Below are positions 14,356 to 23,346 of a stretch of 64,000 nucleotides of DNA, piece after piece. The notes below the pieces were generated by a model. That model was not told the origin of the DNA and ran no database searches. It worked only from the letters and a program-made list of their open reading frames with translations. Source of the stretch: Oxalobacteraceae bacterium GrIS 1.11 (GTDB taxonomy: Bacteria > Pseudomonadota > Gammaproteobacteria > Burkholderiales > Burkholderiaceae_D). The stretch spans positions 30,883-94,882 of the forward strand of contig JBEONR010000025.1 of assembly GCA_040544385.1 (NCBI GenBank). The letters are read 5' to 3'. The position numbers were made by a program, and so were the translations under genes. Positions within the stretch are counted from its first letter, which is position 1. Each line of letters starts with the position of its first letter.

Positions 14356-15477
14356 TCAGCTTTGAGGCCGCCAGCTGAAGCGCTTGAAGGCAAGTAACAG
14401 CGATAGCGTGCCTATCAGCAAGAGAATGAACAGGGTATAGAGCAGTTTTGCGGCGTTGATCTGGCCGGACAGTAAGTCGCGCATGCTGCCCACCAGCGCA
14501 TTGAGCGGCAGTAACTCCATGGCGTCGCGCAGTGTTTTCGGCAAGCTGATCAGTGGCACCATGACGTTGCCGGTGAACAGCAAGGGGAAATAGAGGGAAT
14601 TGGCGGCCAGGGTGGCCACCGTGGTCGAGCTTGAAAACGCGGCGATCAAGATGCCGATGGCGAGGAAGGACGCGGCTCCAAGCGTCAACAGCAGGAAGGC
14701 GGCAGCCACTTGTGGGACGCCGGCGTCGAATCTGAGGCCATACAGCAAGCTCGCCAGCACGAACATCAAGCCACTGGCGCCCAGGCACAATAACAGCCGC
14801 GATACGCACCACACCAGCAGTAGCAGGCTGGGCTTGATCGGGAATAACTGGTAGAGCTTGAACATGCCACCCTCGCGCGCCGCCACCAACGTCAAGCCAA
14901 AGTCCATTAAGCTGGTGGAAAGAACGATCATGCCGGCCAAGCCCGTGACCAGATACAAGAGGTAGTTGCCGCCGGCGGGGCTGGGCGCGGCGCTGGCAAA
15001 GACCAGCCCGAGCATGCGCGGCTTGCCGGAAGACTCGATATTGTAGGCGTCGGTGATGGCGGCCACGATGCCGCGTGTTGCGGTGAGCAAAATATTGTCG
15101 CGCAGCTTGCCGTCCAGGAGCAGCTCGCTCGGCTGGCCCGTGCGCGTGCGCGCGCCAAAACCGGACGGTATCGTCAGTGCCAGGTCGCAAGTGTTGGTGG
15201 CGGCACCGACAGCATGGAGTTTGACCTTCAGCGAGCTTTGGCGGGCCAACTGGCGCGCCAGATAATCGCCGTAGGCAGCGCTTGCGGGACTGCCATCGAG
15301 ATTGACGACGCACAAATCGACGGGGCCGAGGGCGCTGCCGCCGCCAAATAATGTCATTTGCAAGATCAGCATCAAGGCTGGGAAAAACAAGGTCCAGAAC
15401 ATGCCGATTTTGCCGCGCAAGGCTAAAACGAGGTCGATGCGCAGAAATTCCAGGAAGATTTTGATCATCTTAGGCAC
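14356..15477 (-). CDS. ABC-2 type transporter permease (export component of the RiPP cluster)
   Basis: 373 aa with six predicted TM helices and an ABC-2 topology. Its start overlaps the stop of the upstream ABC ATPase fusion gene by 8 nt. Confidence 0.8.
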   Translation of the reverse strand: MPKMIKIFLEFLRIDLVLALRGKIGMFWTLFFPALMLILQMTLFGGGSALGPVDLCVVNLDGSPASAAYGDYLARQLARQSSLKVKLHAVGAATNTCDLALTIPSGFGARTRTGQPSELLLDGKLRDNILLTATRGIVAAITDAYNIESSGKPRMLGLVFASAAPSPAGGNYLLYLVTGLAGMIVLSTSLMDFGLTLVAAREGGMFKLYQLFPIKPSLLLLVWCVSRLLLCLGASGLMFVLASLLYGLRFDAGVPQVAAAFLLLTLGAASFLAIGILIAAFSSSTTVATLAANSLYFPLLFTGNVMVPLISLPKTLRDAMELLPLNALVGSMRDLLSGQINAAKLLYTLFILLLIGTLSLLLAFKRFSWRPQS

Positions 15478-21699: not shown

Positions 21700-23346
21700 T
21701 CAGGCTTCGCCGGCCAGTATCGGCTGCGTGGCGGTCTTATATCGCAGCAATATCATGTCGGCCGCCTTTTCGGCAATCATCACCGTGGGGGCGTTGGTAT
21801 TGCCGCCGATCAGGGTCGGCATGATCGAGGCGTCAACCACGCGCAAGCCCTCGATGCCGCGCACTTGCAACGTGGCGTCGACCACGGCCAGCGTGTCGTG
21901 CCCCATCTTGCACGTGCCGACCGGATGGTAAATGGTGCCGGCCTTGCGGCGGATAAAGTCGCGGATTTGCGCGTCGCTTTGCACCGCCGCGCCGGGAAAG
22001 ATTTCCTTGCCCCGGTAGCGGTCGAAGGCTGGCGCGGCCAAGATCTTGCGCGCCGCCTTGACGCCTTTCACCAGGGTTTCCATATCGTCCGGATGGGACA
22101 GGTAATGCGGCTCGATCAAGGCATTGGCCGCCGGGTCGGCGCTGTGCAAGCCGATGTGGCCGCGGCTTTTGGGGCGCAAGTCGCACACATGCAGCGAGTA
22201 ACCATGACCGAGCATGGTGAAGGCGGCGCGCGACAGATTGCGGCCGTGGTCGTCCAGGTGGGCCGGCGTGAAATGCAATTGCAGGTCGGGGAGGGCTTGC
22301 TCCGGCCCGCTTTTGATGAAGCCGCCGCCCTCGGCCGCGTTGGTGGTCAACGGTCCCGTGCGGTGCCACAGATAGTCGAGCAAGTGTTTTGCCTGCATCA
22401 GAGCATTGCGCCAGGAAATGCCGAGCGACACCGGTTTTGTGCATTCTTGCACCACCAGCACATCGAGATGGTCTTGCAGGTTTTGTCCCACCCCGGGCAA
22501 TTCGTGGCGCAGCGCGATGCCGTGGCGCGCCAATTCGGCGGCCGGGCCTATGCCGGACAGCATCAGCAACTGCGGCGAATTGATGGCGCCGCCAGACAGA
22601 ATCACTTCGCGGCGGGCGAGTATCGTGCCAGGCTTACCGTCTTTCACATAGGCGACGCCGGTGGCGCGCTTGCCGTCGAGCAAAACCTGGCCGACCCTGG
22701 CGCCGGTGATGATGTGCAGATTGGCGCGCGCGCGCACCGGGTCAAGGTAGCCGCGCGCCACGCTCCAGCGCTCGCCATTTTTTTGCGTGACCTGGTACAG
22801 GCCGACGCCTTCTTGCCTGGCGCCGCTGAAATCATTATTGCGCACCTGGCCCGCTTGCAATGCCGCCTGGATGTAGACACCCGACAGCAGATTCGGCGAA
22901 CGCAGGTCGGCCACATTCAGGGGGCCGCCGGTGCCGTGGAAATCGGTGGCGCCGCGCTCATGGTGTTCCGCCCGCATGAATAGCGGCAAGACATCGGCGT
23001 AGGCCCAGCCGGCGTTGCCGAGCGCGGCCCAGTGTTCATAATCGGCCGCATGGCCGCGGGTGTACACCATGGCGTTGCTGGCGCTGCTGCCGCCCAGGGT
23101 CTTGCCGCGTGGCCAATACATGCGGCGCCGGTTCATATGCTCTTGCGGCTCGGTGAAATAGCGCCAGTTCAAGGCCTTGCTAATCATCATGAACATGATG
23201 CCAATCGGCAAACGGATAAAGGGGCTGCGGTCGACCGGACCGGCTTCGAGCAGGCATACGGTCAGCGTGGGGTCGGCCGACAGGCGGTTGGCCAGCACGC
23301 AACCGGCCGAACCGCCGCCGACGATGATGTAATCGAATTCTGTCAT
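21700..23346 (-). CDS. GMC-family FAD-dependent oxidoreductase (choline dehydrogenase-like)
   Basis: MTEFDYIIVGGGSAGCVLANRLS… is the GMC N-terminal FAD motif. The C-terminal GMC signature and active-site His are present. Confidence 0.9.
   Translation of the reverse strand: MTEFDYIIVGGGSAGCVLANRLSADPTLTVCLLEAGPVDRSPFIRLPIGIMFMMISKALNWRYFTEPQEHMNRRRMYWPRGKTLGGSSASNAMVYTRGHAADYEHWAALGNAGWAYADVLPLFMRAEHHERGATDFHGTGGPLNVADLRSPNLLSGVYIQAALQAGQVRNNDFSGARQEGVGLYQVTQKNGERWSVARGYLDPVRARANLHIITGARVGQVLLDGKRATGVAYVKDGKPGTILARREVILSGGAINSPQLLMLSGIGPAAELARHGIALRHELPGVGQNLQDHLDVLVVQECTKPVSLGISWRNALMQAKHLLDYLWHRTGPLTTNAAEGGGFIKSGPEQALPDLQLHFTPAHLDDHGRNLSRAAFTMLGHGYSLHVCDLRPKSRGHIGLHSADPAANALIEPHYLSHPDDMETLVKGVKAARKILAAPAFDRYRGKEIFPGAAVQSDAQIRDFIRRKAGTIYHPVGTCKMGHDTLAVVDATLQVRGIEGLRVVDASIMPTLIGGNTNAPTVMIAEKAADMILLRYKTATQPILAGEA

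Follow-up and report, generated by a model that had tools for sequence, protein, structure and literature searches.

The minus strand of a 64,000-nt stretch of contig JBEONR010000025.1 of Oxalobacteraceae bacterium GrIS 1.11 (positions 30,883–94,882 of a 94,882 bp contig), referred to below as the window, very probably carries an intact six-gene operon for a linear azol(in)e-containing peptide (LAP), a ribosomally made peptide with post-translational modifications (RiPP) of the thiazole/oxazole-modified microcin (TOMM) class. The six open reading frames (ORFs) span 7.3 kb and encode, in the order of the operon, a precursor peptide (A), an E1/ThiF-like partner protein (C), a YcaO cyclodehydratase (D), a flavin mononucleotide (FMN)-dependent dehydrogenase (B), a fusion protein with an HExxH motif, tetratricopeptide repeats (TPRs) and an ATP-binding cassette (ABC) ATPase (F), and an ABC-2 type permease (G). 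We further propose, tentatively and at somewhat less than even odds, that the family to which the cluster belongs represents a distinct LAP subclass whose products would be short rods made almost wholly of 7–11 contiguous thiazole or oxazole rings. Its leader peptides would be cut by a new zinc-metallopeptidase family (HExxH-x11-EGxA plus TPR) that is confined to these clusters and usually fused to the exporter ATPase, as a metalloprotease counterpart of the logic of peptidase-containing ABC transporters (PCATs). The window would then hold a diversified core, with alternating Ser and Cys and a KTQ tail, on a minimal six-gene system.

All six ORFs were found where a preliminary description of this DNA, made from the sequence alone, had placed them, and the encoded proteins are identical to public GrIS 1.11 entries. 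The five long ORFs are certainly genes, a chance origin being ruled out by their family matches; all six frames are intact, and every family-invariant residue of C, D, B and F is kept in the window copy. Genes C and D are separated by a 1-nt gap (TGA-A-ATG), and D and B by 76 nt. Two stop/start overlaps had been offered as an argument for a single operon. The ATGA overlap of B and F stands as described, whereas the 8-nt overlap of F and G exists only if G starts at GTG 15477; a start at ATG 15468, the position at which the alignments of G from related loci begin, leaves a 1-nt gap instead.

Predicted heterocycle-forming enzymes and their precursor

Gene C (20016–20987, minus strand, 323 aa) scores 42 bits against TIGR03882, the family of TOMM precursor leader peptide-binding proteins (cut-off 36.9). 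Comparison of its profile with the PDB returned the N-terminal halves, with a RiPP recognition element (RRE) and an E1-like part, of TruD (E = 3.6e-12), LynD and MusD, as well as the E1-like protein MccB. In an AlphaFold model with a mean predicted local distance difference test score (pLDDT) of 84 and a predicted template-modelling score (pTM) of 0.79, residues 3–76 form four strands (residues 3–32) and three helices (37–76), followed by an E1-like alpha/beta domain. A Foldseek search with this model matched LynD and TruD over the full length (E ~1e-15, TM-score 0.61–0.68), and then MccB, McbB, MoeB and ThiF. The E1/RRE fold, which the preliminary description had singled out for checking, is thus present in both comparisons, and C is predicted to carry an N-terminal RRE followed by an E1-like domain. 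Its two CxxC pairs, also pointed out there, are real (C212/C215 and C298/C301) and invariant in 29 sequences.

The product of gene D (18704–20014, minus strand, 436 aa) is a SagD-type YcaO protein, expected to act as the ATP-dependent cyclodehydratase. It matches the Pfam family YcaO (PF02624) at 1.9e-59 and TIGR03604 with 255.6 bits (cut-off 219.25), and it aligns with the YcaO domains of TruD, LynD and MusD. The residues G83-E84...E87-R88 and E200...E203-R204-D205 (the ExxER and ExxERD motifs) are invariant. The protein ends, as had been noticed early on, in PHPFP, a tail that is the same in 28 of 29 relatives checked and reads PHPMP in the other one. According to work attributed to Dunbar et al. 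in 2014, a PxPxP C-terminus of this kind is reportedly required for cyclodehydration.

Gene B (17788–18627, minus strand, 279 aa), the start of which may be ATG 18618 rather than GTG 18627, encodes a SagB-type azoline dehydrogenase according to TIGR03605 (117.5 bits, cut-off 78.4), and it matches McbC (6gos_C, 1.8e-13) and the cyanobactin oxidase CyaGox. Its residues R135-x-Y137-P-S-P-G-x-L-Y-P and K213-Y214 are invariant, the latter pair in 13 sequences. That TOMM enzymes need the motifs named here for C, D and B is established knowledge. Together, the SagD-type YcaO with its PxPxP tail, the E1-like partner with an RRE, the SagB dehydrogenase with its Lys-Tyr pair and the adjoining precursor gene are the features by which a LAP/TOMM locus is recognised, and C, D and B would be flagged by standard genome-mining rules as a canonical BCD set. 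The TOMM/LAP-type assignment of the preliminary description has held up on all these counts: the three enzymes pass curated cut-offs, and the fold and precursor comparisons agree with it.

It is extremely improbable that the YcaO protein performs another chemistry, such as thioamide or amidine formation, that it has a role outside RiPP biosynthesis, or that the locus is a thiopeptide cluster. Such readings could draw on the public annotation of D as [quoted passage not shown] and on a match of the precursor to a thiazolylpeptide model, which is sub-threshold (E = 0.027). However, D reaches only 26.6 bits against the S12 accessory family (cut-off 700) and 83 bits against the McrA thioamidation family (cut-off 365) while passing the SagD model, so that the public label is a generic mis-annotation, and these scores effectively refute the alternative. 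The E1-like partner and the SagB dehydrogenase are moreover present and conserved, and no gene for TfuA, a LanB-type dehydratase or a pyridine synthase lies in or next to the cluster.

Gene A (21202–21357, minus strand) encodes a peptide of 51 aa, MDKFILTEDISITDTTEVEYSDLYGDELVGASAIAPVGG-SCSCTSCSSKTQ, in which a leader is followed by a core rich in Cys, Ser and Thr. An ORF of this size is not significant by itself, as 146 ORFs of at least 30 aa overlap the examined 12.5 kb of GC-rich DNA. The precursor is credible because it has a strong Shine-Dalgarno sequence (AGGAGA, 6 nt before the ATG), lies directly upstream of gene C, and shares a homologous leader with small genes at the same position in related loci. 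The earlier statement that this gene is invisible applies to the length-limited ORF track, from which it is missing, but not to the public record, which lists it as the hypothetical protein MET3133255.1. No other small ORF with a Cys/Ser/Thr-rich C-terminus was found in 20940–21630.

The preliminary description had also proposed to look in homologous loci for a small ORF rich in Cys, Ser and Thr. Of the related loci, 34 extend far enough to include the sequence upstream of gene C, and each of them has a small gene there with a homologous leader and a short C-terminal core of this composition. An alignment of 13 precursors gives the leader consensus IxIxD-[ST]-T-E-x-E-[YH], in which T-E-x-E is invariant and the Asp two residues upstream is near-invariant; the window version of this motif reads ISITDTTEVEY. 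A scan of one genome per species yielded 22 loci with a YcaO protein 47–50% identical to that of the window, and in every one of them a 45-aa ORF, located 86–212 nt upstream of C, ends in the invariant core SCCTCSCSCCC. When the 17 distinct DNA versions of this sister precursor were compared in pairs, the differences in the 11 core codons were 330 synonymous ones and 0 non-synonymous ones. Counted by codon position, the differences among these versions number 732, 636 and 2149 for positions 1, 2 and 3. Purifying selection on the sister peptide is clear from these sequence comparisons, and the invariance of the core across genera argues for a selected function.

The cores vary more widely outside these genomes. 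In closer metagenomic relatives, with YcaO proteins 52–57% identical to that of the window, the precursors end in ...INDCCCCCCC, ...GEDACCCCCCCCC, ...GAGCCCCCCCF and ...EACCCCSCC, while those of distant relatives end in ...AAGSCCCCCCFSVSA and ...GRCSTSTSTSCSTVW. The window leader (...DLYGDELVGASA...) is most similar to that of the poly-Cys type (...DMYQDELSGALA...). None of the curated NCBIfam precursor models recognises these peptides, and the matches obtained are all sub-threshold and composition-driven; for instance, a distant family precursor reaches E = 0.012 and 15.5 bits against the streptolysin S model, the cut-off of which is 35. Judged by its sequence and context, A would be a genuine precursor peptide without earlier study. 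Assuming cleavage before G38, which would release GGSCSCTSCSSKTQ, the computed monoisotopic mass [M] is 1334.490 for the unmodified peptide, 1154.254 with 9 azoles and 1134.228 with 10.

Between genes A and C lies a GC-rich hairpin (21160–21193, minus strand), which begins 8 nt after the precursor stop codon and was returned by a terminator scan with 17-nt arms and 13 pairs. The first 70 nt after the stop have a folding energy of about -37.6 kcal/mol. Among 24 loci examined, most have a hairpin of comparable stability and unrelated sequence after the stop codon of the precursor gene, a case of structural conservation. No U-tract follows the window hairpin on the sense strand, and the element is probably an attenuator or an mRNA-stabilising stem-loop.

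The fusion protein F and its putative role in leader removal

Gene F (15470–17791, minus strand) encodes a protein of 773 aa that can be divided into a zincin-like domain and putative leader peptidase (residues 1–285; 16937–17791), a TPR-like helical repeat domain (residues ~286–460; 16412–16936) and an ABC transporter ATPase, or nucleotide-binding domain (NBD; residues ~481–773; 15470–16351). The ATPase matches ABC_tran at 4.5e-21 over residues 505–638 and has near-invariant Walker A (GxNGSGKT), signature (LSRGQ) and Walker B (LDEPS) motifs. The adjoining gene G (14356–15477, minus strand, 373 aa) encodes an ABC-2 type permease (ABC2_membrane_3, 1.3e-23), which occupies the same position in 22 of the 22 genome loci.

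Residues 1–480 of F match no Pfam family beyond sub-threshold TPR hits, and a Pfam scan of ten members of the N-terminal family was empty. An exhaustive HMMER search with residues 1–300 against 1.84 billion representative proteins (E ≤ 1e-3) returned 44 representatives, most of which are fusions of 725–940 aa with an ABC ATPase, while about a dozen are proteins of 430–490 aa without it; all members sampled lie within YcaO clusters. The HExxH motif noted in the preliminary description is real and forms part of a longer motif, HExxH-x11-EGxA, which 37 of 38 newly returned representatives contain and which does not vary across 28 aligned sequences with identities as low as about 20%. In the window protein the invariant residues are H155-E156-x-x-H159 (HETGH) and D170-E171-G172-x-A174. 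The AlphaFold (AF2) model of F (pLDDT 86, pTM 0.76) has a three-stranded sheet (113–141), a helix bearing HExxH (147–161), a helix bearing E171 (167–181) and helical repeats (218–460). Such an order of elements is the zincin, or gluzincin, layout. The N-terminus of F is accordingly predicted to be zincin-like, with HExxH on one helix and, on the next, a downstream Glu as the putative third zinc ligand of a gluzincin (clan MA).

Peptidase activity, as opposed to the motif, is suggested by this arrangement without a significant family match. A Foldseek search with the N-terminus gave nothing at E ≤ 1e-3, its top ten including aminopeptidase N (0.083), an M61 peptidase (0.11) and IRAP, and a profile of close homologues had no significant match in the PDB. 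The profile built from the diverse 28 sequences produced sub-threshold hits only, almost all of them to zinc proteases (snapalysin 0.034, HtpX 0.17, IrrE 0.94, aminopeptidase N 1.4). The similarity to the M1, M61, M7 and M48 zinc peptidases is thus weak and non-significant, and the N-terminus appears to be a zinc-peptidase-like domain without earlier description, fused to an exporter ATPase.

The distribution of this protein bears on its role. It is fused to the ATPase in the window and in loci L001–L032 of the set of related loci, and it is split from the ATPase in L033 and L034, the latter having a separate HExxH/TPR gene followed by separate genes for the ATPase and the ABC-2 permease. In L035 and L036 the HExxH/TPR protein is kept though the ABC-2 system is absent altogether. 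The set that stays constant across these variants thus comprises A, C, D, B and the HExxH/TPR protein, with interchangeable transport modules, as would be expected for a maturation enzyme. Leader removal is also an essential step for which the cluster offers no other candidate. We consider it reasonably probable, on these grounds and on the predicted fold, that the HExxH/TPR part of F is the leader peptidase.

The principal competing explanation accepts that an azole peptide is made but assigns the HExxH/TPR part to docking or gating, with the TPRs binding the leader, or to immunity, and leaves cleavage to a housekeeping protease, for which TldD/E, the protease of the microcin B17 and klebsazolicin systems, would be an example. 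In a 2023 review (PMC10885120), no LAP leader protease other than TldD/E and no protease-ABC fusions other than the C39 Cys-protease PCATs are listed; according to the same source, TldD/E is the sole established leader protease for LAPs of Gram-negative bacteria, and its genes normally lie elsewhere than in the cluster. The resemblance of the TPR part of F to peptide-binding TPR proteins fits a docking role, as does the lack of a significant peptidase family match for its N-terminus. A pure docking domain would not need HExxH-x11-EG, however, a motif typical of metal-binding catalytic sites that is invariant down to about 20% identity; the protein is also retained in clusters that have no ABC-2 transporter. 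A TldD gene adjoins the cluster in one of the 37 loci, and none does so in the window. Weighing both sides, we regard this explanation as unlikely, although it is the strongest of those set against a leader peptidase.

TldD/E was also considered as a leader protease encoded by the cluster itself and was rejected, as a tblastn search found TldD in L025 only, the other 36 of the 37 loci and the window being without it. In L025, which is metagenomic, the gene for this TldD/PmbA-family protease (3836–5296) lies two genes upstream of the precursor gene. With no TldD near any other locus or in the window, this adjacency is taken to be coincidental.

With F as the probable leader peptidase, the following sequence of events can be proposed. 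Precursor A would be transcribed from the AT-rich region upstream, and the stem-loop after its stop codon would probably keep the precursor mRNA in excess over that of the enzymes. To judge by the fold, the leader motif ISITD-TTE-x-EY would be bound by the N-terminal RRE of C. Together C and D, whose enzyme families are those identified above, would then use ATP to convert the Cys, Ser and Thr residues of the core SCSCTSCSS(K)T to azolines, from which the FMN enzyme B would form thiazoles and (methyl)oxazoles by oxidation; as many as 9 contiguous rings could result, with T50 as a possible further one. The HExxH/TPR part of F would most likely remove the leader, and the C-terminal ATPase of F would drive export through permease G, so that processing and export might be coupled in one protein.

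Related loci and the standing of the window cluster

The 22 genome loci come from Duganella, Rugamonas, Pseudoduganella, Massilia, Undibacterium and Parachitinimonas, and all 22 keep the gene order A-C-D-B-F-G. In the first five of these genera, soil and freshwater Oxalobacteraceae, the family is widespread, and the family as a whole appears to belong mainly to the Oxalobacteraceae, with short C-terminal cores that are almost entirely heterocyclisable (SCCTCSCSCCC, C7–9). Poly-Cys cores, pure runs of 6–9 Cys, occur in L023–L027, L031–L032 and L035. Judged from the sequences, such cores would give contiguous polythiazole, and no natural product of this kind was described in the literature searched. 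One metagenomic locus, L037, has two precursor genes, one at 998–1150 (plus strand) with the core ...EACCCCSCC and one at 1538–1714 (minus strand) with the core ...VIACCCCCCC, the latter being encoded on the other strand than the enzymes.

The extraordinary Cys content of these cores (C7–C9, SCCTCSCSCCC) also invites another explanation, in which free thiols are partly retained in the mature product, or its main role is to bind metal, as a metallophore or as a metal buffer, and it is not a fully heterocyclised antibiotic or cytolysin; domain and family scans recognised no immunity gene of known type. In known TOMMs, of which streptolysin S and plantazolicin are examples, contiguous Cys runs do, however, become thiazoles. 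The precursor is strictly co-inherited with a complete set of cyclodehydratase and dehydrogenase in which all catalytic motifs are found, and dedicated exporters are present. A thiol-retaining or metal-binding product has, on this balance, little likelihood compared with a heterocyclised one.

In most relatives a five-gene module follows G, which encodes a DUF2141 protein, a MacB-type ATPase, a MacB_PCD/FtsX permease, a LolA-like (TP_0789-like) protein and a protein of ~411–420 aa that has no Pfam match. The module lies at 15676–20082 in L001 and is found also in L002–L015, L018, L020–L027, L031–L032 and L034–L037. The Undibacterium loci L016 and L017 are without it, and so is the window, where a cupin gene and psd are found instead.

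A second, canonical cluster is encoded on another contig of GrIS 1.11 (L028, Logan SRR28961171; MET3135142.1). Its precursor is MNINIDAVNPTIVIIDSTESEYLQDDLGDALADVSVSCCTCSCSCCC, ending in ...ADVSVSCCTCSCSCCC, and a DUF2141 gene follows its ABC-2 permease. The strain thus has two paralogous azole-peptide systems with different cores. The window YcaO is 51% identical to this in-genome paralogue and 57% identical to that of a poly-Cys metagenomic cluster, and because it is closer to the latter, the window cluster is a paralogue that has diverged and did not arise by recent duplication.

Several observations weigh against a functional operon in the window. The core SCSCTSCSSKTQ has no close homologue in our sample, in which it is unique, and it lies outside the evidence for purifying selection, which has been demonstrated for the sister precursors and the shared leader. 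The window is without the MacB and LolA-like module, kept by most relatives, that may serve in outer-membrane export or in immunity and self-protection. The AT-rich spacer upstream of the precursor gene (21360–21630, minus strand), which we presume from its composition to be the promoter region of the operon, had been described as promoter-like; its composition bears this out (46% GC in 21000–21499 compared with ~63% for the window), but a consensus scan found no sigma-70-like site in it.

The window cluster might accordingly be a decaying or silent paralogue, with the canonical SCCTCSCSCCC cluster on the other contig, which has the accessory module, as the functional system. The lack of a DUF2141, MacB, LolA-like and ~420-aa gene in the window and its unique core with a non-heterocyclisable tail would be in keeping with decay. 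Against this, the six ORFs are intact with the family-invariant residues of C, D, B and F all kept, the junctions are tightly coupled and the Shine-Dalgarno sequence is strong. The Undibacterium clusters, which likewise lack the module, keep the invariant canonical core, and residues trailing the core are found in distant relatives too (TVW, FSVSA and F). The identities of the YcaO proteins also speak against a recent decaying duplicate. We therefore think decay improbable and retain the reading of the window cluster as an intact LAP operon.

Known systems and genomic setting

A precursor of the sister type has been listed before. Supplementary file 3 of Cox, Doroghazi & Mitchell 2015 (PMC4603692) contains the entry L9P973 of Janthinobacterium sp. 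HH01 as an 'Orphan' TOMM with the sequence MEILIDTTFISITDSTESEYLQDDMSGALADVSVSCCTCSCSCCC. The precursors of L003 and L008, two loci from Rugamonas, have this very sequence, and its leader is homologous to that of the window. The HH01 sister precursor is thus one that was predicted bioinformatically in 2015 and left unclassified. No curated family matches the window precursor, which the earlier remark had called unlike the textbook ones, but with this listing the family is better known than that remark supposed. The HH01 entry belongs to the cluster family of the window, whose order A-C-D-B-F-G recurs in the 22 genome loci that have the SCCTCSCSCCC core; the window differs in its core (SCSCTSCSSKTQ), in its YcaO, which is only ~47–50% identical, and in being without the DUF2141/MacB/LolA-like module. 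Beyond the 2015 listing, the open-access literature searched yielded no work that characterises the product, the poly-Cys variants or the HExxH/TPR protein, and a report in a subscription journal is possible.

A parallel in a Gram-negative host is microcin B17 of E. coli (McbABCDEFG), which also combines an E1-like protein, a YcaO protein and an FMN dehydrogenase in its synthetase and has an ABC exporter in the operon; window C resembles McbB by fold and window B matches McbC at the E-value given above. In contrast to the window, microcin B17 has a long Gly-rich core with isolated mono- and bis-azoles, leader removal by host TldD/E (PMC10885120), immunity through the pentapeptide protein McbG, and no HExxH/TPR protein. 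The window precursor shows no family match or sequence similarity to that of microcin B17, the cluster has no pentapeptide-repeat gene and the window has no TldD homologue. Streptolysin S and clostridiolysin S (SagABCDEFGHI) share SagB-, SagC- and SagD-type enzymes, contiguous runs of Cys, Ser and Thr in the core and ABC-2 type export. They differ in that their core is longer and its C-terminal half is left unmodified and in the CaaX-type membrane protease SagE, and they belong to Firmicutes and spirochaetes; the window precursor does not match the streptolysin S model TIGR03602, and no SagE/CaaX protease is encoded among the six genes. Plantazolicin-type LAPs, also products of a BCD synthetase, are linear peptides in which contiguous azoles form blocks. 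Plantazolicin itself differs in having two pentazole blocks split by Ile-Ile, an enzyme for N-terminal dimethylation and a membrane protease, the genes for which are absent here.

[quoted passage not shown] In PCATs, however, a papain-like Cys protease is mounted on a full half-transporter, with transmembrane domain (TMD) and NBD, and cuts after a double Gly, whereas F would combine a putative zinc peptidase and TPRs with a soluble NBD and a separate ABC-2 permease. Neither a C39 domain nor a TMD was found in F, and the relation is one of analogy, not homology. Should the HExxH/TPR part prove to be the leader peptidase, the RiPP toolbox would gain a new protease family, and leader cleavage physically coupled to an ABC exporter would be known from a second, independent case.

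Known LAPs include poisons of DNA gyrase (microcin B17), blockers of the ribosome tunnel (klebsazolicin, phazolicin) and cytolysins (streptolysin S), and to our knowledge each newly characterised LAP core has so far provided a new target or binding mode. The present family rises above the routine in that its cores are short and heterocyclisable almost throughout, the window has a unique core with a minimal set of six genes, and the HExxH/TPR protein is narrowly distributed. With its six genes, the window cluster is the smallest version of the system, and it combines this with a distinct and more polar core, which makes it convenient for heterologous expression.

The cluster has a GC content of 58.5%, compared with 63.4% for the rest of the window, and the GC content at third codon positions (GC3) is 64–70% in genes A–D and ~80% in the flanking genes. 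The flanking genes of the window (psd, the cupin gene and the GMC oxidoreductase gene) occur near none of the 22 related genome loci. No tRNA gene and no direct or inverted repeats bracketing the cluster were found, and a mobile-element origin was not adopted, as only the low GC and GC3 and the variable flanks favour horizontal transfer. The suggestion in the preliminary description that the cluster is a chromosomal accessory insertion thus receives modest support, and horizontal acquisition is plausible from composition and context. The cupin (13813–14286) and the GMC oxidoreductase (21700–23346) were considered as tailoring enzymes and set aside; because they are found near none of the 22 loci, they are regarded as ordinary flanking genes. 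Upstream of the GMC oxidoreductase gene, on the strand of the cluster, an ORF of 464 aa (23450–24844, minus strand) begins with a twin-arginine-like signal (MSRRGFLGSTLLG...).

Two RNA family matches lie elsewhere in the window. A strong Rfam match to 5_ureB_sRNA (2374–2659, minus strand; 128.9 bits, 1.1e-33) is probably the antisense strand of the urease gene ureB and not a separate small RNA gene. The second match, to the Guanidine-II (mini-ykkC) riboswitch (7361–7407, plus strand), is borderline at 32.2 bits with a cut-off of 32. The ORF directly downstream encodes a product that resembles a small multidrug-resistance/SugE-type guanidinium exporter, which makes the riboswitch call plausible.

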